Shown here: in pieces, positions 3,003-26,330 of the stretch | How the letters are laid out: the number at the start of each line of letters is the position of its first letter | Position numbering within the stretch: position 1 is the stretch's first letter | Source: a virus | UHGV virus genome: UHGV-0384159 | Length of the DNA stretch: 34,967 nt | Direction: 5' to 3' (one strand) | Position numbers and translations under genes: made by a program | Notes under the pieces: model-generated | Databases searched by the model: none | Seen by the model: the letters and a program-made list of their open reading frames with translations, nothing else | What the model was told of the DNA's origin: nothing

Positions 3003-4307
3003 TCAAGATTGTTTCTTTGTAGACCGCCCCCTTGTATCAAACGCCGGGATATTTAATTTTCTCCTTGCTTTTCCGATAACTTGTATTGATTTGCCTGTTT
3101 TATTAGCGACTTCTTTATCAGTCATTGTGCCCAGCAGGGATTTAATGTATTCGTCCCCTTCTATTGTTTCTTGCAAGCTTTTTTCCTCACGTAATGCCGG
3201 AACATTCAATTTCTGTCTAATTCTTCTTACTGCCTCGTCATCAATATTAAATTTTTCGGCTATTACTCTATCATAAACTTTCCCAAGCATAGATAAGAGT
3301 TTTTTACGTTGGTCCGGTGAAAATCTTTCTAAAATGCTTTTACTGAAAGGCTTAATTTTGTTCTGTTCTCTAAATTTTTTAATTACATATACGCTGTACC
3401 CTGTTTTTTTTGCAATTTTTAAATCTGATACTCTTCCCAATAAATTAAGAATTATATCCTTGTCCGCATCCTTAATGGGAGAGTATGGAGCTGGAGCAAT
3501 TTTTAATTTTCTACGGTTCCGCGCTACAACATTAAGCGATATTCCAAGCCTTTCAGCAATTTCGCTATCAGGAACTTTCCCAAGCATGGATAGCATTTCT
3601 TCGCGTTTCTCTTCGGGGAATTTAGTATCAGATAATGATGGAATGCCCATCTTTTTTCTAATAAGCGCAATTCCTGCCTTGGAATAACCGAATTTTTTAG
3701 CAATTTCATCATCCGGGGTCTTTCCAAGCATGTTAATTAACTCTTCGGGATACTCTTTTTTCTTGTGTGGTTTATTTGGGTCTCGTGGCTGACGGGGTTT
3801 ACGCGGCCCCCTATATGACTTAATCCCTAATTTCTTTCTAAGGTAGGCTACTCTGGAATTTGAGTATCCAAACTTCTTGGCACACTCCGAGTCAGGAATT
3901 TTTCCGAGCACTGCAATAAGCTCTTCATCGTGTTGGATGCGGATTGCTTCAGGGCTGCAATACTTTTTGATACCTAATTTATAGCGTTCAGTCTGGACCG
4001 TGACGCGCGCTATTCCGAGTAGCTCGGCGATTTCCAGATCAGGTTTTTTGCCCAACATGGACCGCATTTCTTCACGCTGTTCGTGAGAAAGAATGCGGTG
4101 AAACCTCTTTTCTCGGTATTTTTCATGCAATAACTCCATGAGCAATTGCATGTATTCAGGCGTGGGATGTGGTTTTTTAGTATTTAGCCACTTCCAAACA
4201 GCATCTTCCGTCACCCGCATCATCTGCGCGGCCCTTTTTACAGCTTGGGTAGGATTTGGAAGATTGTTGGCAGTTTGAAGCCAGTCGATAAATTCTTGTG
4301 CGGTCAT
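3003..4307 (-). CDS. protein with about eight tandem helix-turn-helix repeats (resolvase/sigma-4-like HTH motif, roughly 45-aa period), in AT-rich island 1
   Basis: Repeated unit …EEMLSMLGK(V/T)PD(S/D)EIA(K/E)KFGYS…(I/V)…R(K/R)KLGI… about 8 times, plus an N-terminal AlpA-like segment (RVTEDAVWKWL). Strongly AT-rich compared with flanking DNA. Confidence 0.6.
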   Translation of the reverse strand: MTAQEFIDWLQTANNLPNPTQAVKRAAQMMRVTEDAVWKWLNTKKPHPTPEYMQLLMELLHEKYREKRFHRILSHEQREEMRSMLGKKPDLEIAELLGIARVTVQTERYKLGIKKYCSPEAIRIQHDEELIAVLGKIPDSECAKKFGYSNSRVAYLRKKLGIKSYRGPRKPRQPRDPNKPHKKKEYPEELINMLGKTPDDEIAKKFGYSKAGIALIRKKMGIPSLSDTKFPEEKREEMLSMLGKVPDSEIAERLGISLNVVARNRRKLKIAPAPYSPIKDADKDIILNLLGRVSDLKIAKKTGYSVYVIKKFREQNKIKPFSKSILERFSPDQRKKLLSMLGKVYDRVIAEKFNIDDEAVRRIRQKLNVPALREEKSLQETIEGDEYIKSLLGTMTDKEVANKTGKSIQVIGKARRKLNIPAFDTRGRSTKKQS

Positions 4308-5489: not shown

Positions 5490-5594
5490 AAAATCTGTAT
5501 ATGTGAGAGGGTCAGATTTGTCAATGGGCCCAGAAAGGAATGAACAAACAGAGTGCTTGATTTGCTAGCTACTTGTCCTCTAGAGTAGACCTGC

Positions 5595-6110
5595 AGGAAA
5601 AAGAAGCAATCACCTACCGCCAACAAGAAAATAGGACGGCCCAGCCTCTATACGGAGGCATTAGCCGACGAGATAGCCTCCCGTTTAGCCAACGGGGAAA
5701 CGATGAAGTCCATTTGCTCGGACGATCACATGCCGGAGGTTTTAACTGTCTGGAGATGGAGGCACGAACGGGAAGAGTTTTGTAAACTCATTCAACGCGC
5801 GCGGGAAGCGCAGTCAGAAGCCATGCTCGACGAGTGTCAGTCTTTGTCAGATGCCGCTGCCCAGGTTGCCCTCGACCCCGAATGCGGATCCGCCTCCGTC
5901 GCTGCCAAGAAGCTCGCCATTGAAACGCGGCTGAAAGTTGCCGCCCGTTTTGCCCCCGAGAAATTCGGCGACCGAGTCCGGCAGGATGTAGCGGGCGTTC
6001 CCGGCGCTCCATTGGAACGCAAAATCACCCTGGACCCCGAGCAGCTTGCCCAGCTCCGGGAAGACGAGAAAACCGCGCTGGAAACCATTGCCGGCAAACT
6101 CCACCCTTAA
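5595..6110 (+). CDS. terS: terminase small subunit (N-terminal HTH GRPSLYTEALADEIASRLANGETMKSICSDDHMPEVLTVWRW); proposed AGG start
   Basis: The conserved TerS N-terminal HTH lies upstream of the first ATG (5703). The frame is open from 5589 with no ATG/GTG/TTG before 5703; in-frame AGG at 5595. C-terminal ARFAPEKFGDR motif. Confidence 0.55.
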   Translation, partial: RKKKQSPTANKKIGRPSLYTEALADEIASRLANGETMKSICSDDHMPEVLTVWRWRHEREEFCKLIQRAREAQSEAMLDECQSLSDAAAQVALDPECGSASVAAKKLAIETRLKVAARFAPEKFGDRVRQDVAGVPGAPLERKITLDPEQLAQLREDEKTALETIAGKLHP

Positions 6111-6116
6111 TCGAGC

Positions 6117-7490
6117 AGGAACCATCTCCCCGTCAGCTTCTTCCTCCGTCACATTCTCGGACTCGATCCTTATCCCTGGCAAATCGAGGCCATCAAGGCA
6201 TTGCTTCTTGGAAAGGTGAGGCTGGGAGGTCGAAGCGTGGCCATGGTTGCTCCGAACGGATCGGGAAAGACGAGCCTATCCATTGCGCCCGCAATCCTGT
6301 GTTTCCTTACCTATTTTCCTCGGGGTCAGGTGCCAGTCACGTCATCATCATGGATGCAGGTAGAAAAACAGCTCTTTCCCGCGCTTCGCCGCTATATGGA
6401 TAACCCTTTCTTTGACGGCTGGACATTCAACAAAACCGAAATCCGCACGCCGGAAGGAGGATTTGCCGTGGGATTCTCAACCGACAACGCGGGACGCGCA
6501 GAAGGGTGGCATCCGAAAATCTCGCCCGACGTGGATCCCGTCTTTTACGTCCTGGACGAAGCCAAGACCATTCCCGACTCCATCTTCACCGCTGTTTCCC
6601 GCTGCACGCTCTTCAACGCGTTCATCACCTCGTCGCCGGGTGCCGATTCCGGAACCTTTTACGACTGCTTCCACAAAAATTCATCCCTCTACTACAAAAT
6701 CCGCGTTAAATACGAGGATTGCCCGCACATCGAAATCAACGATCCAGGCAAGGCCGAACGCCTGAAAAAAGAATACGGCGAACAGTCCTCCTTCTACCGC
6801 TCGGCCATCCTCGGCGAATTCACGGACCTTGACGGGCAATCCGTCATTTCCCGCCGCGCCATCATGGAGCTGCTCAACAACCCGCCTCCCTTTTTGGACA
6901 CCGGGGAGACCTGCGGCGGCTTTGACTTCGCCGCCGGGGGTGATGAGAATGTCTTCGCGGCCGGACAGGGCAACCGTTTTTTCATCGCCGACCACTGGGC
7001 CGACCCAGACACTGTAGGAGCGCGCGGACGTTTCCGCCGAAAGGCCGCCGAACTCGGCATCTCTGCCGACCGCATCTTTGCCGACGGCGACGGACTGGGG
7101 CTTCCCATCATTGACGACTTCCGGGCTGAGGGTTTCCCCGTGCACTCCTACCGGGGAGGCTTCCCGGCAGATGACACACAAGCCTTTGTCAACCTCCGCG
7201 CCCAAGCATGGCGGGCTCTCGCCCGCGCCATCGAAGAAAAAGAACTCATCCTCGACATTGACGAGGATACGATTGAGCAGCTGGTTGCTCCACGACTCCA
7301 AACCGACGCAATAGGCCGCGTCCGCATTGAAAGCAAAGAAGATATGGCAAAGCGGGGCGTTCGTTCCCCAGACCGGGCCGACGCCCTTGTGATGGCCTGG
7401 CACGCGCGCCGGAACAGCGGACTGGCGCGGACGCTGGGAGCCTGGTACGCCCGTCCCGTGTCATCAAAACGCGCTTACGGGAGATATTAG
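6117..7490 (+). CDS. terL: terminase large subunit (ATPase); proposed AGG start
   Basis: Walker A VAMVAPNGSGKTS. The Q-motif-like LGLDPYPWQIEAI lies upstream of the first canonical start (TTG 6201). Same frame as terS, separated by one TAA; in-frame AGG at 6117. Confidence 0.6.
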   Translation, partial: RNHLPVSFFLRHILGLDPYPWQIEAIKALLLGKVRLGGRSVAMVAPNGSGKTSLSIAPAILCFLTYFPRGQVPVTSSSWMQVEKQLFPALRRYMDNPFFDGWTFNKTEIRTPEGGFAVGFSTDNAGRAEGWHPKISPDVDPVFYVLDEAKTIPDSIFTAVSRCTLFNAFITSSPGADSGTFYDCFHKNSSLYYKIRVKYEDCPHIEINDPGKAERLKKEYGEQSSFYRSAILGEFTDLDGQSVISRRAIMELLNNPPPFLDTGETCGGFDFAAGGDENVFAAGQGNRFFIADHWADPDTVGARGRFRRKAAELGISADRIFADGDGLGLPIIDDFRAEGFPVHSYRGGFPADDTQAFVNLRAQAWRALARAIEEKELILDIDEDTIEQLVAPRLQTDAIGRVRIESKEDMAKRGVRSPDRADALVMAWHARRNSGLARTLGAWYARPVSSKRAYGRY

Positions 7491-7492
7491 GG

Positions 7493-7521
7493 TTGACAAC
7501 ATATCAAGATATCAATATATG
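7493..7521 (+). promoter_or_regulatory. sigma70-like promoter (TTGACA -17- TATATG) upstream of the tRNA
   Basis: Consensus -35 TTGACA at 7493-7498; AT-rich -10 region at 7515-7521; tRNA 5' end at 7538. Confidence 0.4.
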
Positions 7522-7537
7522 ACGATATGTAAGCAAT

Positions 7538-7611
7538 CGCAGGGTGGTGAAACGGTATCACGCGGGGTTCCTGTCCCCGAATCGAAGGTCCAACTCCTTC
7601 CCCTGCAACCA
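7538..7611 (+). tRNA. initiator-like tRNA with anticodon CCU (Arg-type anticodon), CCA encoded
   Basis: Manual cloverleaf: acceptor CGCAGGG/CCCTGCA with C1xA72 mismatch, U8, D-stem GTGA/TCAC with loop AACGGTA, anticodon stem CGGGG/CCCCG with loop TTCCTGT (anticodon 7570-7572), variable loop AATC, T-stem GAAGG/CCTTC with loop TCCAACT, discriminator A, CCA 7609-7611. Confidence 0.7.
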
Positions 7612-7627
7612 CCTTTTCTTTAGCCTC

Positions 7628-8992
7628 AGGTTTAACGCCGTCAAAAATATCCTCAACGCCCCGAAGCTGGTAGCCCAACAGGAGACCAGAATCAAGGAGC
7701 TTGAAACGGACCTGGCCCGGCGAGCGTTGACGGAACAGAGCCGGAAGCCTAACCAGCCTCAATGGTACGAATATTGGGACCCGTTACAGGGCGCCGACCT
7801 GCAAACCCTGATTGACGCCCGGAACGAAGCGCGGCGTGGAGCCTTTGCCCGCCAAATGCTCATTTGGGACGAGGTCATCTACTCGGACGGCTTGATGGGC
7901 ATGCTCTATTCCCGGCTCATTGAAAGCGTCTCCATGCAGGGATGGAAGATTGACGCCGCGGACGACAGCCCGGAAGCCCAGCGTCAGCAGAACGCGCTGG
8001 AAGAATTCTATCACTCCGTCACCGGACTTCAACAGGCCTTTGGGCAGTTGGCCTCCGCTATGTTTTACGGGTACGCCCACCTCCAATACATCGAAGATTC
8101 CTGGGGCCGCCGCTTTGAATTCATCCCGCAGCGATACTGGGTGCGGCCCGGAGAGCTGAACGAATGGCAGTTTAATCCCCAGTGCTACATCGGGGTCGAC
8201 ACGGGCGAGAGCGTAGAGGAAGAAACGCTCGTGGTCATGGAGCACCGGAACCCCATTCTTTTTCCGGCAACCCGCGCCTCTTTTGAGCGGAATCACGCCA
8301 AAGTTACGTGGGACAACCATATGGACCGCTACGGGAGCGCCCCGGTCATCATCACGGCGCCCAAGGACGCGAGCGCCGCCGTCATGGACGCGCTGGAACG
8401 GGCCTGTGAGGAACTCAAATCGGGAGCCTCCATTGTGCTTCCTCCCGGCTGCACCGCCGAACCGTTGAAAGCCTCCAACATCAACGAAAACTATTTCCTA
8501 TCCCGAATCAACATGTCCGACAAGGACCAGGTGCGGTTTGTAATGGCCGGCACTCTGACCGTCCTGAATGAATCAGGATCCGGCACGCTGGCCGGGGGAG
8601 CGCACACGGACAGCTGGAATTCGGTCGTCTCCGCGGTCTGTTCCAAGGTCGCCGAAGCTTTTAACGCCGCCATCAGCCCGCTTGTCCTGGGAGACGGCGA
8701 ACCGCTGGCCCGCCTCCACATCACTTTTGACACCGTCCAGACCCCGCTGCAGAAAGCCGAGGAAATCGCCGCGCTTGCCGACGGAGGCGTCCGCCCCGAG
8801 AAGACCGAGATTGAAGAAAAGATCGGCATGTCGATCGAGGACACGCAGGACCCCGTTCCGGTGACGGCGGCGGCCAACAGGGAACCGGAAAAAGCACTCA
8901 TTCCGCCCGATGCTTATGAACAGCTTCAGCAAATGATTTACGCCGGACTCATGAAAGGATTTACCGATGATCAGCACGAAACAAATCAATGA
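7628..8992 (+). CDS. portal protein; proposed AGG start 17 nt after the tRNA
   Basis: Large ORF between terminase and protease. The track's GTG 7544 start would read through the tRNA gene. First in-frame AGG after the tRNA is at 7628; next canonical starts are TTG 7727 or ATG 7853. Confidence 0.5.
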   Translation, partial: RFNAVKNILNAPKLVAQQETRIKELETDLARRALTEQSRKPNQPQWYEYWDPLQGADLQTLIDARNEARRGAFARQMLIWDEVIYSDGLMGMLYSRLIESVSMQGWKIDAADDSPEAQRQQNALEEFYHSVTGLQQAFGQLASAMFYGYAHLQYIEDSWGRRFEFIPQRYWVRPGELNEWQFNPQCYIGVDTGESVEEETLVVMEHRNPILFPATRASFERNHAKVTWDNHMDRYGSAPVIITAPKDASAAVMDALERACEELKSGASIVLPPGCTAEPLKASNINENYFLSRINMSDKDQVRFVMAGTLTVLNESGSGTLAGGAHTDSWNSVVSAVCSKVAEAFNAAISPLVLGDGEPLARLHITFDTVQTPLQKAEEIAALADGGVRPEKTEIEEKIGMSIEDTQDPVPVTAAANREPEKALIPPDAYEQLQQMIYAGLMKGFTDDQHETNQ

Positions 8993-10563: not shown

Positions 10564-11490
10564 AGGGCTACTCCATTTTGCTCCGCCGTTCAGTTCACCG
10601 ATGTCCTGACCTCCTATTCCGCGGGGTCCGGGAACACCGAAGAGAACTCCATCATCAGCCGCATCGCTCCGATCGTCCCGGTCTATGACCTGAATTTCCA
10701 GTACAAGGTCTGGGACACGGAATCGGCCTTCACCGTCCAGCCCATCCAGGTGGGACCGGGCGAACCTCCCCGCCAGACCGTCCTGCGCGGAAGAAACGAA
10801 ACCGACACCCTTCAGGGCTACGGCTTGACGCTGCCCATCCCTGACGCCTTGCTGGGCGTCAACCGGGAAAAGGCGCAGGCCATCACCCTGGCGGAATACA
10901 AACTCATCGAATCCCAGTTTGTGACGTCGTACGAATACGAACGCGCCAAGCTTCTGATGAGCCAGCTTCCGGCCGCTTCCGGGATGGGTGACTGGGCCAA
11001 CCAGCAGAAAAACCCGTTGGCGGATCTGGACCAGGCGATCCTGTCCATCAACGCCGCAACCGGACACATGCCGAACACGATTGTCTTCGGCATCAACGCA
11101 TGGCAGCTGCTTCGCTCCAACACGCTCGCGCGTCAGGTGGTTTCCTTCAACAGCGTCGGCCTGTTCAACGAAGACCTTCTTCGCATGGCTCTGATCCGGC
11201 CCATCCGGGATATTTACATCGCCTCCATGCCGTACCGCGACGCTTCCGGCGACGCGAAAACCATCATGGAAAACGAAGTCTATGTCCTGTACAAGGAAGA
11301 CTCCCCGACGCAGTTCGACGCCTCCGCCGTCAAGACCTTCGGTCTTTCCGGCAAGCTTCGCCGAGAAGTCATCACTGAATACAAGCCGACGCCGGCCTTG
11401 ACGCTCGTCACAAACCGCGTCTACTCGCTGACCAAGTTGACGAACCCCAGCGCCATCGTCCGCATCGACGCGACGGCCACCGGCGATTAA
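10564..11490 (+). CDS. major capsid protein (lambda gpE-like family); proposed AGG start
   Basis: TIVFGINAWQLLRSNTLARQVV resembles IIVFDPKGWALFRS of lambda E. Conserved N-terminal region (ISRIAPIVPVY…) lies upstream of the first canonical start (GTG 10750). Frame open from 10537; in-frame AGG 10564. Confidence 0.55.
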   Translation, partial: RATPFCSAVQFTDVLTSYSAGSGNTEENSIISRIAPIVPVYDLNFQYKVWDTESAFTVQPIQVGPGEPPRQTVLRGRNETDTLQGYGLTLPIPDALLGVNREKAQAITLAEYKLIESQFVTSYEYERAKLLMSQLPAASGMGDWANQQKNPLADLDQAILSINAATGHMPNTIVFGINAWQLLRSNTLARQVVSFNSVGLFNEDLLRMALIRPIRDIYIASMPYRDASGDAKTIMENEVYVLYKEDSPTQFDASAVKTFGLSGKLRREVITEYKPTPALTLVTNRVYSLTKLTNPSAIVRIDATATGD

Positions 11491-14685: not shown

Positions 14686-15336
14686 AGGGCAACTACATAC
14701 GATCCCACATTCACGAACCGCAACGTCACGCCGCAGATTACCGGCGTTCTGGCTATTTTCCTCCCCGACGGCATCAAGGTGACCGAAGACGAGGGAGCTT
14801 CTTACGTCACCGGGCCGGACCAGTTTCCGACGCCTCCGACGTCTCCGCCAACGGATCCGACCGCCGGGCCTGAACAGCCCTGGGTGAGCTTCGGGCTGCT
14901 GGGAGCGTTCCAGTCCGTCGCCACCCAGGTCGAAGGGGAAGTGACGCGCTTTTACGGCGGTGCGCTGGGATATCGCCAGCAGCGCAAGAACACCACGACC
15001 GGCAAGCGGATGACCTTCACCACGCCGGACATGTCCCCCGAATGGTTCCAGCTTTCTTTCGCCTTGGGAGCGCCTCCCGCCAACGGCGAGGAATCGACCA
15101 CCGTCGGACATGGCGGCGACAATAAGATTGAGGGGTATCTTCACTTCTGGTATCAGAACGACGTGGGTACTATCTATCTGGTCGGAACGGCGCATGGCGC
15201 CTTGCGCCTCCTGCAGGATCCCGAACACACCACGGCGATTGCTTCACCCCAGTTCGAGTTCGAAATGGATTATCGCGGCAAGTACCAGTTCACGCCCTCC
15301 AATGTGCAGGACGTGACGCCGGCGCCGGGTTCCTGA
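14686..15336 (+). CDS. tail structural protein; proposed AGG start (MATTYDPTF…)
   Basis: Frame open upstream of GTG 14779 with protein-like sequence; in-frame AGG 14686; followed by a terminator. Confidence 0.4.
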   Translation, partial: RATTYDPTFTNRNVTPQITGVLAIFLPDGIKVTEDEGASYVTGPDQFPTPPTSPPTDPTAGPEQPWVSFGLLGAFQSVATQVEGEVTRFYGGALGYRQQRKNTTTGKRMTFTTPDMSPEWFQLSFALGAPPANGEESTTVGHGGDNKIEGYLHFWYQNDVGTIYLVGTAHGALRLLQDPEHTTAIASPQFEFEMDYRGKYQFTPSNVQDVTPAPGS

Positions 15337-15348
15337 CGCGTTTCACCA

Positions 15349-15381
15349 GGGGGCGCGCTGCGCCCCCGCATCCTCTTTTTT
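15349..15381 (+). terminator. intrinsic terminator GGGGGCG-CGCTG-CGCCCCC … TTTTTT
   Basis: 7-bp G/C stem with 5-nt loop and a T6 run 8 nt downstream, right after the 15336 stop. Confidence 0.5.
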
Positions 15382-15384
15382 CCC

Positions 15385-17505
15385 AGGCAGCAGGCAGGCA
15401 AATACGATATCCGGACCGTCACGGGGCTGAACCAGTCGCTGGTCGTCCGTGTGGTAGATTTTCAGGGGGATCCCGTCGACATGAGCGGCGTCACCCTCCG
15501 CGGCGCTGTCCGTCTCAAGACAGGCGTCGCCGAGTTCGGCTTTTCCCGCGACGATGAGGGTAACGGCGTGCTTTCCTGGGCTTCGGTGCCTGCGGGCAGG
15601 TGGTCCTACGACGTCTTCATGGACGACGGAAACGAGGAAAGACCGCTGCTCTACGGATGCTTTGTTTCTGCGGGCCGTGTAACGCCTGACTTGCCGGACG
15701 AACAGCAGGCCGTGGCGGGCGCGGTCGTCGTGCAGCTGCCGGAAGGAAGCGGATGCGTGCAGGTGGTGCTTGATAATGCGTCAAGCGCCGCCTGGTACGC
15801 GGAGCAGGCCAAGAAGTACGCCGAGAATTTCAATCTTTCGGTGGACCGGGTCACTACCGGCGAGCCTGGCACTCCTGCCGCAGCGGAAGCCGTGAAAGGC
15901 TCGGAAGCGGGCTCTTATCTGTTGTCGTTTACCATCCCCAAAGGAGACGCCGGTCCCGAAGGCCCACCAGGCCCGCAGGGGGAACCGGGCGAAACCGGCC
16001 CCGAAGGCCCTCAGGGTCCCAGGGGCGACGCAGGACCTCAAGGTCCTCAGGGAGCGACCGGAGAACAGGGACCAAGAGGCGACATTGGAGAAACCGGACC
16101 GCAGGGTCCTGCCGGCCCGCAAGGCCCCGAGGGGCCGGAGGGTCCCCAAGGACCCCGTGGCGAGAAAGGAGATACCGGGGATGTTAATCCGGACGGGTCT
16201 TATAACTGGACGCAGCCGCAGACCTACGACGCCACGATCACCGCAATCGAAGGAGTCCGTGTGCCGCTGCCCGCCACAGGGCAGAATGCCATTTCCTATG
16301 AGGGAATGATAACCATGACGGCTGCCGGCCAATGGAGCCGCACCAACTATTTTCTGGAATCCGTCATTCCGTCATGGGTGACCGCCTTGGTGGAAGCCCA
16401 GTCGTTGAACACAAGCTACGCAATTGCTACCGCTAACGCCTCCCTGAAGAAGGGAGTATTTAATAACGACTTGTGCGATATGGTATTAACCATGACGGCG
16501 GCCGGGGGTGTTTCTGTTATCGGCAAATCCACGGGATCATGGAAATTTGCCAATTACATGGGCAACAATAGAAATAACGAATATGCTGCCGCTTGCGCCT
16601 GGCGGATACTTGGCTCCGACAAGGTGTCGGTTCTCTTGGGCAGCACTGCCCAGGGGTACGCTACGACTGTCGATCCGCTGGCGTCCTGCTATTCACATCC
16701 TGTGCACTGGGTGGATTATGCCTGGGATAATGCAAATTACAGGTATCCGCAAAACAATACAGTCAATGGAGCGAGAGGGGGCGACAATGTGCCGGCGTAT
16801 CAGATCACTACCTACCCTATGGGGTATCTGGGGAGCAATAAGTCGGCCTTGATAAGGGGGACGTTTTACGGACCCCTCAAGGTAGATTCCCATTATGTTT
16901 GGGCATTGGCTCCGGCTTTTACCTACGTCTCCGCGGCCATGACGCCACCCAACCCCGATGACCAGGAGATTTACAATCGCTGGGCTTTGTTTGTGGACAA
17001 GCAATATGTAATGGATATGGCTTCCTCCTTTTGGGGCGCCGGCAACACAGCATGCCTTACAACCAAATTCAAGGCGCACGAAGTCAGCGGGACTTATCAG
17101 GCGGGCCTCCGGATGGGAGGAATGAGGATAGACAATGCACCCTCACTGGGCATAACCAACTCCTGGGTCCTCATGAAGGACACGGTAATGGAGGGCGTGA
17201 CACCTAAACCAGTTCCAGAAGTAACGGCTTCTGCTCAGGAAGTTCCGGCCTCTGGCGGCGAGGTGACATTGACGGCGTCTTCCACCCTCTCCGAGGCTAT
17301 CTATGTGCTGAACGATACCATGTGCGGACATGACCCCGCCGCTGTGTGGTGCACGCAATCCTCTGAAGAAATAGGGTCCGGCGGCGGCCAGGTTGTCCTG
17401 ACGCTGGCGGCAAACACGACTGGACAACCGCGGCAGGTGTGGGCGTTTGTCGGCCACCATTACGCCGAGGCCGCCGTTGTAGAAATCAACCAATTAGCGC
17501 AATAA
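15385..17505 (+). CDS. collagen-like (Gly-X-Y repeat) tail fibre protein; proposed AGG start
   Basis: About 77 uninterrupted GXY triplets ([34 protein letters not shown]…) followed by a roughly 430-aa C-terminal globular domain. Frame open from 15337; in-frame AGG 15385; GTG 15451 and ATG 15481 are alternatives. Confidence 0.6.
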
Positions 17506-18626: not shown

Positions 18627-18692
18627 TCAACTGTAAAGTTTTTCTTACAAGTTCATACATATTAATAACCAATCAATTAAAGGAGAATACCC

Positions 18693-19223
18693 AGGAAAAT
18701 AGCCATTGATATAGGCCATGCCAACAACACCGGAGCCCGTGGAAACAGGCTTGAAGAACACGCCGTAGCAGCGACGATTACGGAACGCCTCGCGCCTATG
18801 CTCAGAAAGCTGGGCGCCCAGGTGGACGTAATTGACTTTCCGGCCCAGAGCAACACGGACGACCTGAACGCCACCATCAAGGCCGCCAACGAAGGCGGCT
18901 ACGACTTCGGGATTTCCCTGCATTGTGACTCATCGGATAATGTGCAAGCTCACGGCGCCCATGTGTGCTTCTATCCCGGGAGCGTTAAGGGAAGCCGGCT
19001 TGCCATGTGCATCGCGGAACCTCTTGCCCGGCTGCTCCCAGGACGGGACTGCACGGTGTTGGCCCGTCCGGGGCTGGCCGTCCTGAAAAGGACGCGCTGC
19101 CCGTGGGTGCTGTGCGAATGCGGCTTTATCACCAATCCTGAAAATGCCGCCCTTATGAAGGACCATCCCGAAGCCATTGCGGAAGCCATTGCGGAAGGAG
19201 TGAAGGCCTATTCCAAGCTGTAG
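18693..19223 (+). CDS. N-acetylmuramoyl-L-alanine amidase (Amidase_3 family); proposed AGG start giving MKIAIDIGH…
   Basis: SD AAAGGAG at 18679-18685, 7-nt spacer, in-frame AGG 18693. The canonical N-terminus KIAIDIGHANNTGARG follows directly. First canonical start (ATG 18798) would remove the catalytic N-terminal motif. Confidence 0.6.
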   Translation, partial: RKIAIDIGHANNTGARGNRLEEHAVAATITERLAPMLRKLGAQVDVIDFPAQSNTDDLNATIKAANEGGYDFGISLHCDSSDNVQAHGAHVCFYPGSVKGSRLAMCIAEPLARLLPGRDCTVLARPGLAVLKRTRCPWVLCECGFITNPENAALMKDHPEAIAEAIAEGVKAYSKL

Positions 19224-20789: not shown

Positions 20790-22640
20790 ATGGCTACCAA
20801 GAAAGAAATCGAAATCAAGCTCAAGTCCACGCTGGACGGAAAAGGCGTAGAAGAAGCAAAGCAGAAGATTGACTCCCTGAATAAATCCACAGACCAGCTC
20901 GACAAAGGCAGTCAAAAGGCGACCAAGAGCATCAAGAACATGGGGAAGGGCACCTTACAGGCGGCCTACTTCTTCGATGACCTGCAATACGGCATCAAGG
21001 GCATCCTGAACAATATTCCGGGCCTTGTAATAGGCTTCGGCGGCGGGGCGGGCCTAGCCGGCGCTCTCTCCCTCGCCACGCTTGCAGGCGCGAAGCTCTA
21101 CGAGTGGCTTTCCTCGACGGAAGAGAAGTCAGTTGATTTGACTAAAAAACTTGAAGAAGAAAGAGAGGCTTTCAAAAAGTTAAAAGAAGAAGTTGGTGAA
21201 ATTTCTCGGCAAAACAACAATGAACAAATATTACGGGCGGCAATAGATAGTGCAAAAAAAATAGCTGATTATCGTAAAGAAGAAGCTAACGCATTAAAAT
21301 ATTCTTTGGATTATCGTAAAGAGTTGATTGCTTTAGAATCTGGAATTAATGACGATGAAGCAGAGATCGCCCGCCTAAAAGTAGAGGAAGATTTTGCTAA
21401 TGGGAAATTAGGTGAAGGCGCCGAGGCTGAGCGTCGAAGAGCTCGCTTGTTAGAAGGCATCGAATTAGATAGCCGCGCAAGAAGGAGAAATGAAAGAGAA
21501 GAATCAGCAAAATTAGATGTGTCCGACGCAGTCAATAAGAGAATTGATGCAGCTCGTACCGCAAGAGAAGCTCAAGAGTCACTCCAAAATGCAAAATCTA
21601 ATTCTTACGATATCATGTCTCTTGAAGAAAGAAGGGCGTCAGAAGTTTCTTTAAGTGAAATGAGAAAATCTTTAATAAATGATTTATATGGAGCTTTAAA
21701 ATCGTATAGAGATAAAGAAAGAGATTCCGGAGCCTTACGATATAGGAATGTAAGTGATAAATCTATTTATGATACAGCTAATGAGTTTGTAAATGGAGAA
21801 GAAATTTCAAATAAATTGGTGTATGCATTGCTCGATAAATACCGACCTAGCGACGCAGAATCTAGAAGAGCAAAAATATTTGATATTCAAGGAAACATAG
21901 AGAGAAGTGACATTTCTCTTCAGGATAAAGGTTTTAATTTGGGTGATATGACTTTTGGAGATGGAGGTTATTTGAATGCCTATAAATCTTATGCTGAAAC
22001 CGTAGAAACTCTTGAAAAAGAATATGAAGAATCGGAAAAGTCTTTAATATCAGCAAAGAATGATGAAGAAATAGCAACGCGAAAGCTATCTGATGTAAAG
22101 AGAAAAAACGCCTCGGAAGCCGCTGTTGATATACAACGCGGTAGGACGTCTCAAGCTCAGGAGAGAAGGCAAATCCGTGAAGAAACAGAAAAAGAGGATA
22201 CCGAGAATGAAATCGAAGGCAGAAAAAAAGAAATAGAAACCAAAAAAGATGCTCTGAAGAAGAATAAGGATAATTTTTCTGCTGAACTGGAGCGTTTAGT
22301 TGTTGCTGCAGGGGAGTCTGCCAGTGAGCAACAGAAAGCGATGGTTAGAGCCGCTTCGGAGGCTATTCGGAATCAGGTTAAAAACGCCTCGGCAGATGGA
22401 ATAATTGACTCAGCAGAATATACACAAATAGGAGTTGCCTTTAGAGATGCTTTGAGGCAGCAAGGAATTCAAAACACCTCAATTCTGAATGGACTTACCA
22501 CAAATATGAAACAAGCTCTTTCCCTTGTTAATCAACAAGCGGCAGAATTAAGAGTTCAGCAGGCACGAATCGATCAGTTAACTCGAGAGCTAAAACAAGC
22601 TCAAAATAATATTGGAGGATTACGGCGCAGAAAACATTGA
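20790..22640 (+). CDS. tape-measure-like protein; the C-terminal roughly 500 aa are encoded by AT-rich DNA
   Basis: Glycine-rich hydrophobic N-terminal segment (GLVIGFGGGAGLAGALSLATLAGA) followed by a long K/E-rich predicted coiled coil. Nucleotide composition drops abruptly at about 21120. Confidence 0.45.
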   Translation: MATKKEIEIKLKSTLDGKGVEEAKQKIDSLNKSTDQLDKGSQKATKSIKNMGKGTLQAAYFFDDLQYGIKGILNNIPGLVIGFGGGAGLAGALSLATLAGAKLYEWLSSTEEKSVDLTKKLEEEREAFKKLKEEVGEISRQNNNEQILRAAIDSAKKIADYRKEEANALKYSLDYRKELIALESGINDDEAEIARLKVEEDFANGKLGEGAEAERRRARLLEGIELDSRARRRNEREESAKLDVSDAVNKRIDAARTAREAQESLQNAKSNSYDIMSLEERRASEVSLSEMRKSLINDLYGALKSYRDKERDSGALRYRNVSDKSIYDTANEFVNGEEISNKLVYALLDKYRPSDAESRRAKIFDIQGNIERSDISLQDKGFNLGDMTFGDGGYLNAYKSYAETVETLEKEYEESEKSLISAKNDEEIATRKLSDVKRKNASEAAVDIQRGRTSQAQERRQIREETEKEDTENEIEGRKKEIETKKDALKKNKDNFSAELERLVVAAGESASEQQKAMVRAASEAIRNQVKNASADGIIDSAEYTQIGVAFRDALRQQGIQNTSILNGLTTNMKQALSLVNQQAAELRVQQARIDQLTRELKQAQNNIGGLRRRKH

Positions 22641-22652
22641 AGAAAAATTATC

Positions 22653-23057
22653 ATGATGTATGATGTTGCCATGAAATATTTCTACTTCTGCGGGAATGTT
22701 GTCAAAGGCCCCATATCATTCAGGCAACTACAAATTTTAATTAAAAATCATGTCATAGGACCTGAAACATTAATTTGCGCAGAAGGAACAAATAAATGGT
22801 TCAAGGCTGATGAATTACTAAGGGAAAGCAATAAAACAACTTATTCTACTAAGAAACTTCCAAATCGCAAAGAAAGTAATTCTTTTCTTTCCACAGTCCT
22901 TATATTTCTCGCAACCCTATCGATAGGAGGGGGCTTCATTATGGGGATTGTAAGTTTTGAAGCAGGGTTAATTGGTATTGGAATGGGTTATATTCTGGGA
23001 GGTGCCGTAGTGGCTGTACTTTGGTACACGCTGTATATTTTACTTGCCAAAAAATAA
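22653..23057 (+). CDS. membrane protein with N-terminal DUF4339/GYF-like domain and two C-terminal TM helices
   Basis: YFYFCGNVVKGPISFRQLQILIKNHVIGPETLICAEGTNKWFKADEL motif; TM segments at the C-terminus; AT-rich. Confidence 0.45.
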   Translation: MMYDVAMKYFYFCGNVVKGPISFRQLQILIKNHVIGPETLICAEGTNKWFKADELLRESNKTTYSTKKLPNRKESNSFLSTVLIFLATLSIGGGFIMGIVSFEAGLIGIGMGYILGGAVVAVLWYTLYILLAKK

Positions 23058-23159: not shown

Positions 23160-25337
23160 AGGAACCATAACATTACCATAGATGACTTGCTGGCTCTCAA
23201 GCCATCAAGCCTCACGCACGATCAACAGAGCTTCTCCACGTCCACCATTACGGCAGTTTACCCCGTCAGGACGCTTGGGGAAACTTTGCCGTACAAGCAA
23301 TTCGATACCGTCACCATCTCCCAAAACGGACAAGTCATCCTAGTGGGGCTGGTGTCCAATATTGAAAAAGTATACAGCGGCAGCCAGCGGTCCTGGAGGA
23401 TTGTTTTTTCCGACCCCTGGTATTACCTCGCTAATTGCTATGCCTTGGAAAATGGATGGCAGCCGACGTTCGGGCTTTTCCCCCGTAAAGGCGTAGAGGG
23501 TATTATTCCCAAGGTCAACCTGAGCGGCGCTTTGTCCAGCGTGCTTGACATGGCAAAGCACCACCCAGCCAGCTATGAGCTGCGCATCAGAGACGACAAG
23601 CAGCTGATACCGTGGAATGCATCCTGCGACACTCTTCAAAGTCTGCTGCAGTCCATCCGGCGCTGGTCTCCGCGTATGGTCAGTTATTATGACTATACGG
23701 GAGAGAAACCGAAACTCATCATTACGGACTACGATTCTCTCGACCCTATTTCCCTGCCGCTGCAACCCTCCGCCACAGTCAAAAGCATAGACGTATCACT
23801 GTCACCGCGAGGCGACCTTGTTCCCCCCTGTGTTGCGATTGTGGCAGAATCTACCGGCAGTTCAGGCTATCGCGTCTCCTACCTTTCCAAGTACCCGTCG
23901 GACGGCGACCCTACGCTGCCGCATTCGATCGTCTATCGCGTCTCCTCTGACTTTTATTTCTCCAATTACAATGAGTCAGGCGGTTCCGCTTCCGAACCCC
24001 AGCCCGTAAAGACTTCCAGATCCGGCAGCTTGGCTTATCAGAAGATGATTGTCAAAGGGCGCCGCATTGACGCTGCGGACATGATCAACAGCTTTTGGGC
24101 ACACCATTTCCCGTGGATGAAAGACATCCCGGCAGGGCAGCTTGTGACCTATTCCGACCGGGTCGTCACTCCCAAGGCATGGGAAGGCACGGAAGAGGAA
24201 AAACCCAAGGGGTACGACACCACGGCAACCGCATACGAACTTACAGACGGGCAGATTCACACAAAATCCCTGCGCCCTAAATGGTGCAATACCACCATCA
24301 AGCAGCGTCTAGCCATTCCGGAAAATGCCCCGGCCAAGTGGAGAGAAAAATTTAAGAACATCGGAGTAATTGGAGGAGGAGACACGCCTTGTTTCTGGCA
24401 GGAATTTTCCGTGGACCTGGTGACACTCGACCGCCCCAATGCTACCTATCCGATTGACGGCATTTATAACGGCGAACAGCCGTCAAACGATGAAGACGGA
24501 CCCTCTACCGGACCCAATGACGGAATACCTTATGCCGACATAGCAAGAACGGTGTGGGAATCCATGCAGGAACTTCCCTATGACGGGTCTATCTCCTTTG
24601 CGGCTCGCGGGGGGGCTCAATACTGGCAATACATGGGGCGCCGTGTTTCCTTGCTTGGCGGCAATCCGGAATGGGAAACTATCAATACCATGGTGCAGAC
24701 CGTAAGCCGTGACTTGCAGACCAACGTTATTGAACTTTCCTACGGCTCTCCGTCTCAACTTGGAATCGAAGATTTACTTGAGCTTAATGAAGTGAATGTT
24801 ATTTCAGATGCCTCTTCCGCGTTGGAAAACATGCAGGGAGCGCCGGAACCAATTGACCTGACCTACGACCCCAAGCCGGAATCTCCGACCATTGGACAAC
24901 AGATTACGACCGCCACCGGGTCTGAAGCTCCTGCGCCGGAATACGGCTTCCAGGTGCGCCTGACCAAGGACACAGAAGGAAACATCACCGATGCTCGCAT
25001 CAAACCCGGCGCTCTCTACCTCAACGGCTCTCTCTTGGGATTCTACCCGACCGGAGACGGCGGCTCCGGCTCCTCCTGGGTGAAACTCCCGATGACCAGC
25101 GGGGAGGTCTGGATAAATGTCCACTTCGACCAGGACGCCAAGTTAACCAGCGCGGAAATGTCAGGCATACCGGGAACGGTGTACCCGATCATGCTCGCCC
25201 AGGAAAAACCCGGCGTCAACTTTGACTATGCTTTTCAGGTTGCCGACATCAACGAAGACCAGGTCACGCAATACGCCCTGGGCATGATCCAGATCCCGGT
25301 CTTCGGAGGCACCTTCTACCCCTACGGACCAGCTTAA
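23160..25337 (+). CDS. large distal tail / host-interaction protein; possible AGG start (track start TTG 23187)
   Basis: 716-aa-plus ORF after the tape-measure-like gene. Frame open from 23106; in-frame AGG 23160 sits in the context GCAGGAACCAT, identical to the terL AGG context. Confidence 0.4.
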   Translation, partial: RNHNITIDDLLALKPSSLTHDQQSFSTSTITAVYPVRTLGETLPYKQFDTVTISQNGQVILVGLVSNIEKVYSGSQRSWRIVFSDPWYYLANCYALENGWQPTFGLFPRKGVEGIIPKVNLSGALSSVLDMAKHHPASYELRIRDDKQLIPWNASCDTLQSLLQSIRRWSPRMVSYYDYTGEKPKLIITDYDSLDPISLPLQPSATVKSIDVSLSPRGDLVPPCVAIVAESTGSSGYRVSYLSKYPSDGDPTLPHSIVYRVSSDFYFSNYNESGGSASEPQPVKTSRSGSLAYQKMIVKGRRIDAADMINSFWAHHFPWMKDIPAGQLVTYSDRVVTPKAWEGTEEEKPKGYDTTATAYELTDGQIHTKSLRPKWCNTTIKQRLAIPENAPAKWREKFKNIGVIGGGDTPCFWQEFSVDLVTLDRPNATYPIDGIYNGEQPSNDEDGPSTGPNDGIPYADIARTVWESMQELPYDGSISFAARGGAQYWQYMGRRVSLLGGNPEWETINTMVQTVSRDLQTNVIELSYGSPSQLGIEDLLELNEVNVISDASSALENMQGAPEPIDLTYDPKPESPTIGQQITTATGSEAPAPEYGFQVRLTKDTEGNITDARIKPGALYLNGSLLGFYPTGDGGSGSSWVKLPMTSGEVWINVHFDQDAKLTSAEMSGIPGTVYPIMLAQEKPGVNFDYAFQVADINEDQVTQYALGMIQIPVFGGTFYPYGPA

Positions 25338-26075: not shown

Positions 26076-26330
26076 TCATCTTGTTGATATCAACAACATG
26101 ACCCTGAGGGTAGGAAAGGAACTGTACAAAAAGCTGAACATTATATTCATAAGTATATTTATAATCAATAAATATAATCCCTCCCGCTCCGCCACTTTTT
26201 TATTACGCTAGAGCACGGAAAGCCTGATTTTACAAGGTTTCCGTGCTTTTTTATTACGCTACATTACCACAGAAAACGGAAAGGTTGCTGTACAAGTGGC
26301 TGTACAAGTTTTAAAAATTGTACAGTTCAT
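26076..26330. other. putative attP / integrase control region with dense repeat architecture
   Basis: 16-bp palindrome TTGTTGATATCAACAA (26081-26096). CTGTACAA at 26122, 26288 and 26300 plus an inverted copy TTGTACAG at 26318. 15-bp direct repeat TTTTTTATTACGCTA at 26196-26210 and 26247-26261. AT-rich block 26141-26180. Confidence 0.4.
26212..26252 (+). terminator. intrinsic terminator AGCACGGAAA…TTTCCGTGCT + TTTTTT
   Basis: 10-bp stem with 16-nt loop followed by a T6 run, downstream of the GT-like gene. Confidence 0.5.

Follow-up and report, generated by a model that had tools for sequence, protein, structure and literature searches.

To our knowledge, every natural initiator tRNA described carries the anticodon CAU. 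Translation from codons besides AUG, GUG, and UUG is regarded as a rare near-cognate event, and some phages recode TAG or TGA as sense in late genes via phage-encoded suppressor tRNAs. In the laboratory, engineered initiator tRNA bodies with a changed anticodon initiate at the matching non-AUG codon, the amino acid being set by the new anticodon (PMC11744186). Here, we report an analysis of a tRNA gene at positions 7538 to 7611 of UHGV virus genome UHGV-0384159 (34,967 nucleotides [nt]; this whole stretch of DNA is called the window below) and of the late genes around it. The comparisons presented here make it very probable that, through this phage-encoded initiator tRNA with the anticodon CCU, late genes of a temperate Akkermansia phage and its relatives use AGG as a start codon.

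The principle would be that of laboratory anticodon-mutant initiators such as the amber tRNA(CUA) (PMC11744186), but the window tRNA occurs in nature, with more than 70 contigs conserving it, and appears to be matched by coevolved starts in at least eight genes. As in stop-codon-recoded phages, a phage tRNA would alter how a codon is read, late genes would depend on that tRNA, and the regulatory logic may be the same; stop-codon recoding, however, acts at elongation and termination, whereas the AGG system would act at initiation, changing which codon starts a protein. For a natural non-CAU initiator tRNA or for AGG-start phage genes, the literature yielded no description, only engineered systems, with coverage incomplete and a prior report possible. 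As far as we know, the tRNA is without natural precedent among initiator tRNAs and in phage tRNA-mediated recoding.

The tRNA gene and its relatives

The tRNA gene stands between the genes for the large terminase (terL) and the portal protein, with the following neighbors.

7493-7530, plus strand: promoter-like element, with −35 TTGACA (7493-7498), a 17-nt spacer, and a −10-like TATATG (7516-7521), from sequence reading and conservation
7538-7611, plus strand: initiator-type tRNA, anticodon CCU (C34 C35 U36 at 7570-7572), encoded CCA, from ARAGORN, Rfam, the minimum free energy fold, and covariation
7612-7627, plus strand: pyrimidine-rich noncoding spacer from the tRNA CCA to the portal start, varying in length and sequence in relatives
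7628-8992, plus strand: portal gene (Portal_Mu family, Pfam PF06074), AGG at 7628-7630

A sequence-only reading of the window had proposed a 74-nt cloverleaf with CCA and a CCU anticodon at this site. ARAGORN called a tRNA with the anticodon CCT there as that reading expected (7538-7611, plus strand, labeled tRNA-Arg), the sole tRNA in the window. The same stretch scored 52.7 bits against Rfam RF00005 (gathering threshold, 29; E = 1e-08; whole model covered), and its minimum free energy structure was a cloverleaf that leaves nucleotide 1 unpaired (−28.2 kcal/mol; z = −2.13; ViennaRNA), so that the proposed structure was borne out by all three. From 5′ to 3′, the tRNA reads CGCAGGG, UG, GUGA, AACGGUA, UCAC, G, CGGGG, UUCCUGU, CCCCG, AAUC, GAAGG, UCCAACU, CCUUC, CCCUGCA, A, and CCA. 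Each of the initiator determinants listed in the earlier reading was found, namely a C1×A72 mismatch, G2:C71, C3:G70, A73, and three consecutive G:C pairs in the anticodon stem (G29-31:C39-41), together with the encoded CCA; elsewhere, the tRNA has U11:A24, U20, C55, and a D loop of 7 nt (AACGGUA).

The tRNA was present between terL and the portal gene in 38 of 38 related IMG/VR contigs (portal proteins 81 to 100% identical), in 32 further metagenome contigs, and in one more distant contig from a metagenome-assembled genome (L084; portal 63% identical). Sixteen distinct variants, drawn from more than 70 independent contigs, were aligned. In this alignment, 94.9% of cells were paired, and compensatory change was seen at nine pairs, a result matched by none of 500 shuffles; the tRNA is real and under structural selection. 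The anticodon is CCU in every copy. Acceptor pairs 4:69, 6:67, and 7:66 vary with compensation, and position 1:72 is C×A in all 16 variants, including lineages that differ at three other acceptor pairs. Columns G2:C71, C3:G70, and A73 are invariant, and 30:40 is G:C in 16/16. An unpaired 1:72 is a formylation determinant and an antideterminant for EF-Tu, and G2:C71, C3:G70, and A73 are formyltransferase determinants. Among the three G:C pairs of initiator tRNA, G30:C40 is the single essential one (PMC5389676). Invariant acceptor determinants together with an invariant G30:C40 are the pattern expected under selection for formylation determinants and the three-G:C feature. Two caveats had been attached to the tRNA at the outset: U20 is present and conserved (16/16), while C55, present in the window, is variable, with U55 in several variants (L084 among them).

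BLASTN with the window tRNA against 50,697 GenBank phage records returned, outside Akkermansia phage, only annotated tRNA-Met genes among the matches covering at least 59% of the tRNA (77 to 82% identity over 59 to 93% of its length), and none of the matches carried a tRNA-Arg annotation. Identity to the window tRNA was 76% for the tRNA-Met(CAU) of Stenotrophomonas phage RAS14 (which has C1×A72, G2:C71, C3:G70, three G:C pairs, CAU, and CCA), 68% for Escherichia coli metY, 53% for E. coli argW [tRNA-Arg(CCU)], and 39% for the host tRNA-Arg(ACG). For this comparison, metY and argW were taken by their coordinates; BLASTN of the window tRNA against E. coli genomes matched nothing. The alignment to tRNAfMet and tRNAArg(CCU) that the sequence-only reading had called for thus placed the tRNA nearer to metY than to argW, and the near identity of its acceptor stem to that of E. 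coli tRNAfMet also held: metY (CGCGGGG/CCCCGCA-A-CCA) differs solely at pair 4:69.

A pattern scan found the same D arm and 3′ end in about 25 environmental phage contigs, but there the anticodon, in the loop CUCAUAA, is CAU, and in most of them A72 faces a C, A, or G at position 1. These tRNAs (IMG/VR contigs L139-L176; D arm GTGA-AACGGTA-TCAC, 3′ end GCA-A-CCA) form a tRNA(CAU) family that is apparently phage-borne and initiator-type, the lower end of the anticodon stem having just two G:C pairs.

By these comparisons, the tRNA is grouped with initiator-type tRNA-Met, not with tRNA-Arg. Most simply, a phage initiator-type tRNA(CAU) would have acquired the single substitution A35C; a change of start from ATG to AGG would likewise take one substitution. 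With bacterial tRNAfMet (E. coli metY), the window tRNA has C1×A72, G2:C71, C3:G70, A73, CCA, and G29-31:C39-41 in common, and it departs from it in having CCU and not CAU, U11:A24 and not A11:U24, a 7-nt D loop with U20, and, in many variants, C55; charging with Met is presumably absent as well. The RAS14 and environmental phage tRNA-Met(CAU) genes share the D arm GUGA-AAYGGYA-UCAC, the 1×72 mismatch, A73-CCA, and a short variable loop but, unlike the window tRNA, retain CAU; AGG-start genes are not known for them, no search aimed at such genes having been made. Elongator tRNA-Arg(CCU), for example argW, has the same CCU with C35 and U36; the window tRNA, however, is without a 1:72 pair, is 53% identical to argW, and lacks the A20 found in the D loops of both argW and the host tRNA-Arg(ACG). 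The tRNA fails the defining features of tRNAfMet (CAU and Met) and those of tRNA-Arg (A20 and a paired 1:72). It appears to be initiator-like in its working yet a member of neither family.

AGG starts in the late genes

The portal gene lies just downstream of the tRNA, as the sequence-only reading had noted, with its AGG 16 nt past the CCA. AGG is found at this site in 25 of 25 unique contexts. The spacer between CCA and AGG is 15, 16, 20, 22, or 23 nt long among relatives and variable in sequence, and the AGGTT that comes next is invariant; because the spacer length varies, the portal reading frame cannot begin 5′ of the AGG. Coding-type variation was seen from codon 2 on (25 unique sequences), with third-position synonymous changes dominating and with L/V/I and K/R swaps among relatives at codons 5 and 6. 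No invariant ATG occurs before codon 77, which is one, and a relative without the tRNA (L082, described below) has TTG at the portal start codon. Taken together, these sequence comparisons identify AGG as the portal start codon. Two other starts were considered and ruled out: a GTG inside the tRNA (7544), from which spacer indels break the frame, and a TTG at portal codon 34, which is CTG or TTA in relatives and is preceded by codons under coding selection. Public calls for the portal protein (P0001-P0036) have at least eight lengths (352 to 493 amino acids [aa]) with assorted false starts, some of them running through the tRNA gene; the portal gene is systematically misannotated because of its AGG start.

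The window was screened for stop-to-stop open reading frames in which the first canonical start lies far inside and an in-frame AGG stands just past the upstream stop. Seven further late genes were found (AGG is numbered as residue 1 throughout), listed here with a promoter-like element that precedes the first of them.

5557-5594, plus strand: promoter-like element 5′ of terS, with TTGATT (5557-5562), 18 nt, and TAGAGT (5581-5586), ending 8 nt before the AGG
5595-6110, plus strand: terS (small terminase), AGG at 5595-5597; first ATG at residue 37
6117-7490, plus strand: terL (large terminase), AGG at 6117-6119, 6 nt past the terS stop; first canonical start TTG, residue 29
10564-11490, plus strand: major head protein, AGG at 10564-10566; first canonical start GTG, residue 63
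14686-15336, plus strand: late gene of 216 aa, AGG at 14686-14688, in 19/19 unique contexts; first canonical start GTG, residue 32
15385-17505, plus strand: collagen-repeat tail fiber (Pfam Collagen, PHROG tail fiber), AGG at 15385-15387, in 14/14 unique contexts; first canonical start GTG, residue 23
18681-19223, plus strand: endolysin (Amidase_3, Pfam), with Shine-Dalgarno AGGAGA (18681-18686), a 6-nt spacer, and AGG at 18693-18695; first ATG at about residue 36
23160-25337, plus strand: late gene of 725 aa, probable AGG start at 23160-23162, the weakest of the eight

In these genes, relatives keep the AGG even when the DNA before it is unrelated, and profile hidden Markov model matches (Pfam, PHROG) reach upstream of the canonical starts. 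Positions 1-105 of Pfam Sf6_terminase match terS residues 19-130, and the AGG of terS is kept in all relatives; the PHROG 2 match in terL begins at residue 17, and the terL AGG is found in 22 unique contexts. Position 14 of the PHROG 1005 profile aligns to residue 13 of the major head protein, and Amidase_3 positions 1-173 match endolysin residues 3-171. The AGG at 23160 is kept in four unique contexts with unrelated upstream sequences, and coding-type substitutions start right after it. Judged by its position, the 216-aa gene may encode the major tail protein. With the portal gene included, at least eight late genes of the window appear to be without a usable ATG, GTG, or TTG start and to begin at a conserved in-frame AGG, while 16 further late genes, and every early or lysogeny gene, have ATG or another canonical start. 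As a codon reassignment, the case consists of AGG used beyond the host code in phage genes and a tRNA(CCU) in the same genome. Between the 216-aa gene and the tail fiber AGG, at 15340-15384, lies a terminator-like hairpin (GGGGGCGCGCTGCGCCCCC) with a T-run of variable length, and its stem shows compensatory changes in relatives.

Upstream of terS (window 5550-5594; L002-L040), relatives carry unrelated sequences, and in each version TTGAnn and TAnnnT stand 17 to 18 nt apart, the pair ending 6 to 8 nt before the AGG, which suggests that the terS mRNA is leaderless or nearly so. For the tRNA, TTGACA and an AT-rich block are kept in 34 upstream variants. The consensus promoter that had been ascribed to the tRNA was upheld as to its perfect, conserved TTGACA, but its −10 is TATATG and the site went uncalled by a simple sigma-70 consensus scan, which called neither the tRNA nor the terS promoter; both are predicted here from conserved TTGACA / TAnnnT spacing. 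An inverted repeat, ACATATC...GATATGT (ACATATCAAGATAT / ATATGACGATATGT; 7499-7530), overlaps the promoter-like element of the tRNA and is kept in relatives. It could be a possible operator for tRNA expression.

AGG and ATG exchange at the same sites among relatives. The capsid gene begins ATG GCT AAT CTA TTT TAT in two contigs (L031 and L074) and AGG GCT AAT CTA TTT TAT in relatives, and the same two contigs have ATT ATG at the AGG site of terL. For the amidase, the Shine-Dalgarno sequence (AAGGAGA) and the spacer are alike in all relatives and are followed by AGG (five unique contexts) or ATG (six). The gene at 20790 has ATG in the window and AGG in metagenome contig L199.

Contigs L082 and L083 (portal 60% identical) had no tRNA in the gap between terL and portal or elsewhere in the 13 kb read. 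The L082 orthologs of six AGG genes begin with ATG or TTG. When the 15 called gene starts of L082 were mapped on the window, six fell exactly on an ATG, three fell within 1 to 6 codons of an ATG, five fell exactly on an AGG (portal, capsid, 14686, 15385, and amidase), and one (terL, ATG) fell 2 codons from its AGG; at the AGG codons of the capsid gene, 14686 (ortholog 79% identical), and 15385, L082 has ATG. By our own estimate, the chance of five exact AGG matches in 15 is about 1e-8, internal AGG making up 0.53% of codons. In L084, the tRNA is kept with an acceptor stem that differs at three pairs and with C1×A72 and the three G:C pairs retained, and the portal gene begins AGG TTT, 26 nt past the CCA. 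AGG starts thus appear to co-occur with the tRNA, L084 having both and L082 neither. Of 6629 internal late-gene codons, 35 are AGG (5.3 per 1000; 9% of Arg codons), a frequency below that in early genes, which implies no elongation demand for the tRNA in late genes. The original proposal, that an initiator-type tRNA lets the phage start translation at AGG, draws support from the relatedness of the tRNA, the conserved AGG starts, the AGG/ATG swaps, and the co-occurrence.

Proposed mechanism and competing explanations

In the proposed mechanism, the change from CAU to CCU (A35C) in a phage initiator tRNA would let it pair with AGG in the ribosomal P site. Extrapolating from work in E. coli, the host formyltransferase would recognize the acceptor end, and the 1:72 mismatch would keep the tRNA off EF-Tu. 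C35 and U36 are identity elements for arginyl-tRNA synthetase (ArgRS), and via these bases aminoacylation would shift from methionyl-tRNA synthetase (MetRS) most likely to ArgRS; the charged amino acid is probably arginine, by analogy, and proteins would then begin with (formyl-)arginine. With full codon-anticodon complementarity and G30:C40, the tRNA would be accepted by IF2, IF3, and the 30S subunit, as engineered initiators are (PMC11744186, PMC5389676). On a leaderless terS mRNA, start selection would rest mostly on the initiator tRNA. With the tRNA gene placed within the late operon and preceded by a promoter-like element of its own, late proteins would need both the late mRNA and the tRNA, a translational license by which leaky late expression in lysogens would be suppressed. 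This licensing or antileak role is the one that we favor; an alternative purpose would be protection from host defenses that target the host initiator tRNA. The fuller proposal, of a first natural sense-to-start reassignment in which about one-third of the late genes use AGG, their proteins have (formyl-)arginine N termini, and the license keeps late mRNAs silent, is possible but put forward tentatively.

Several points weigh against initiation at AGG by this tRNA, or against parts of the mechanism. The evidence is computational throughout, and the licensing role is pure inference. U11:A24, found in 16/16 variants, is of the elongator type and not the A11:U24 of E. coli tRNAfMet, although the phage CAU relatives also have it, and the two outer positions of the three-G:C feature admit exceptions (29:41 is A:U in 2/16 and 31:39 is U·G in 2/16). 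With a conserved U20 in place of the host A20, charging with Arg may be poor, and another amino acid may be carried; basic amino acids on initiator tRNA are, in addition, said to be poor formylation substrates in E. coli (work of the RajBhandary laboratory). In the 725-aa gene, a conserved TTG at residue 10, nine codons downstream, is an alternative start. The 13 kb read in L082 belong to a 24.6-kb contig, elsewhere in which a tRNA is possible.

Were the gene to encode an ordinary elongator tRNA-Arg(CCU), supplementing AGG decoding or replacing a host tRNA lost to an anticodon-nuclease defense, the start AGGs would be unrelated to it. The ARAGORN label, the ArgRS identity bases C35 and U36, and the elongator-like U11:A24 all fit such a tRNA, and phage tRNAs are known whose changed anticodon loops let them escape host nucleases (PMC10264068). 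Such a role is nevertheless very unlikely: C1×A72 is kept in 16/16 variants although three other acceptor pairs change with compensation; A20 is missing, unlike in the host tRNA-Arg(ACG); the GenBank phage matches at 59% coverage or more, outside Akkermansia phage, are all tRNA-Met and none tRNA-Arg; internal AGG is minor in late genes, at a level below that of early genes; and the eight genes without canonical starts, like the AGG/ATG swaps, would be left unexplained. Those starts could conceivably be read, inefficiently, by host fMet-tRNA(CAU) as near-cognate codons, with the phage tRNA uninvolved in initiation. CUG, AUU, AUC, and AUA do start at 0.1 to 1% in E. coli, but AGG mismatches the middle anticodon base, which is poorly tolerated by IF3 (PMC11744186). 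The AGG genes also include those for the most abundant virion proteins (capsid and probable tail protein), AGG starts are confined to tRNA-bearing genomes (both in L084; neither in L082, which uses ATG/TTG), and the initiator-type CCU tRNAs found in the viral collection all belong to this phage group, all of which makes near-cognate reading by the host tRNA highly improbable.

The tRNA may also initiate at AGG while being charged with Met or another non-Arg residue, and with Met, the codon alone would be reassigned. This is unlikely, though it fits descent from tRNA-Met-type sequences, with A73, G2:C71, and C3:G70 common to tRNAfMet; it also fits U20, unfavorable for ArgRS where the host tRNA-Arg(ACG) has A20, and fMet would be the best fit for the host formylase, deformylase, and IF2. 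What speaks against it is work of Schulman and Pelka: E. coli MetRS reportedly needs all three CAU bases, and an Arg anticodon on Met-tRNA is reported to switch it strongly to ArgRS. Nor was a phage synthetase or formylase found among 28 window proteins compared with Pfam, a search outside which 10 small late products fell. We regard it as extremely improbable that the gene is mainly a DNA or RNA element, whether an integration target or an RNase P/Z site releasing the portal mRNA, with decoding secondary. Processing of a tRNA placed between terL and portal would cut the late transcript there, and an integrase module stands directly past the CCA in contig L199; but the phage attachment site (att) is the 3′ end of host tRNA-Ser(GCU), another tRNA, a processing signal needs no invariant CCU, C1×A72, or G30:C40, and as much as 15 kb separates AGG-start genes from the tRNA.

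If initiation at AGG by the phage tRNA is true, it would represent a new class of genetic-code variation, at initiation rather than at elongation or termination, and viral private start codons that gate or protect late expression would become directly testable. Public annotation of common human-gut Akkermansia prophages would be wrong, and gene callers would misannotate any such genome. The tRNA and its codon would offer synthetic biology a natural, evolved orthogonal initiation pair. Akkermansia muciniphila is in development as a probiotic, and control of its prophages is of practical interest.

Phage context and distribution

The window and Akkermansia phage DTMo-2021a, whose host is A. muciniphila, share 87% identity. 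The phage is temperate (integrase, antirepressor, RecT/YqaJ, RuvC, Dam methylase, and DnaC-like loader), and its late module comprises terminase, Mu-type portal, protease, head, tail, and amidase genes. In chromosomes, the prophage lies downstream of recQ, where it occupies the 3′ end of the host tRNA-Ser(GCU); the att core is that 3′ end (CCCTCCCGCTCCGCCA), found at about 26176-26200 of the window beside the integrase gene. The window tRNA(CCU), considered as the attachment site, was ruled out on these grounds. In the chromosomes, a tmRNA gene and tRNA-Arg(ACG) lie near the tRNA-Ser(GCU) (L271, 9772-9864). In contig L199 (ULRR01030325.1; 565-638 and the next 450 nt), terL and the tRNA(CCU) are followed directly by an integrase (MAGLIKRKNSW...) in place of the portal gene. 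This integrase is related to that of the window, and TGTACA repeats are present; this order may have arisen by insertion of another element at the tRNA or by rearrangement, or the contig may be an assembly chimera.

A pattern scan of IMG/VR for initiator-like tRNA(CCU) found this phage group only, additional matches being dismissed as chance, and a second scan that also allowed CGU or CUU found no initiator-like tRNAs with these anticodons. Among 185,579 species-representative genomes, no initiator-like tRNA(CCU) was found (23 of 23 matches were chance, with no tRNA among them), an absence that is not proof because the pattern demands an encoded CCA and GGG/CCC. Canonical-looking initiator tRNAs with CCT (e.g., CGCGGGGTGGAGCAGCCAGGTAGCTCGTCGGGCTCCTAACCC...CCCCGCAACCA) were seen in a metagenome scan on two single contigs, SXGS01199901.1 (L203, 608-684) and JAABUY010018639.1 (L236, 4965-5039), in ordinary high-GC chromosomal contexts (rluB, scpAB, rpsT, and holA lie near the first); each could be an assembly error or an independent case. 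In an unrelated phage (L101, 473-1115; IMG/VR 3300014953_000015), a ROOL RNA (Rfam, 291 bits) lies in a tRNA cluster, and directly past it is a tRNA-like sequence that scores weakly (36 bits), has CCU as its anticodon, and pairs poorly in the acceptor stem.

Relatives of the tail region sought via the 19230 gene amounted to five loci only, in a region that is mosaic, and a portal query with 10-kb flanks served better. Two low-GC islands (about 39%, versus about 57% elsewhere) were seen in the window, at 3003-4307 (minus strand) and 21000-23000. The product of the former is a 434-aa protein that has several helix-turn-helix motifs, and the latter falls in a 616-aa late gene (20790-22640).

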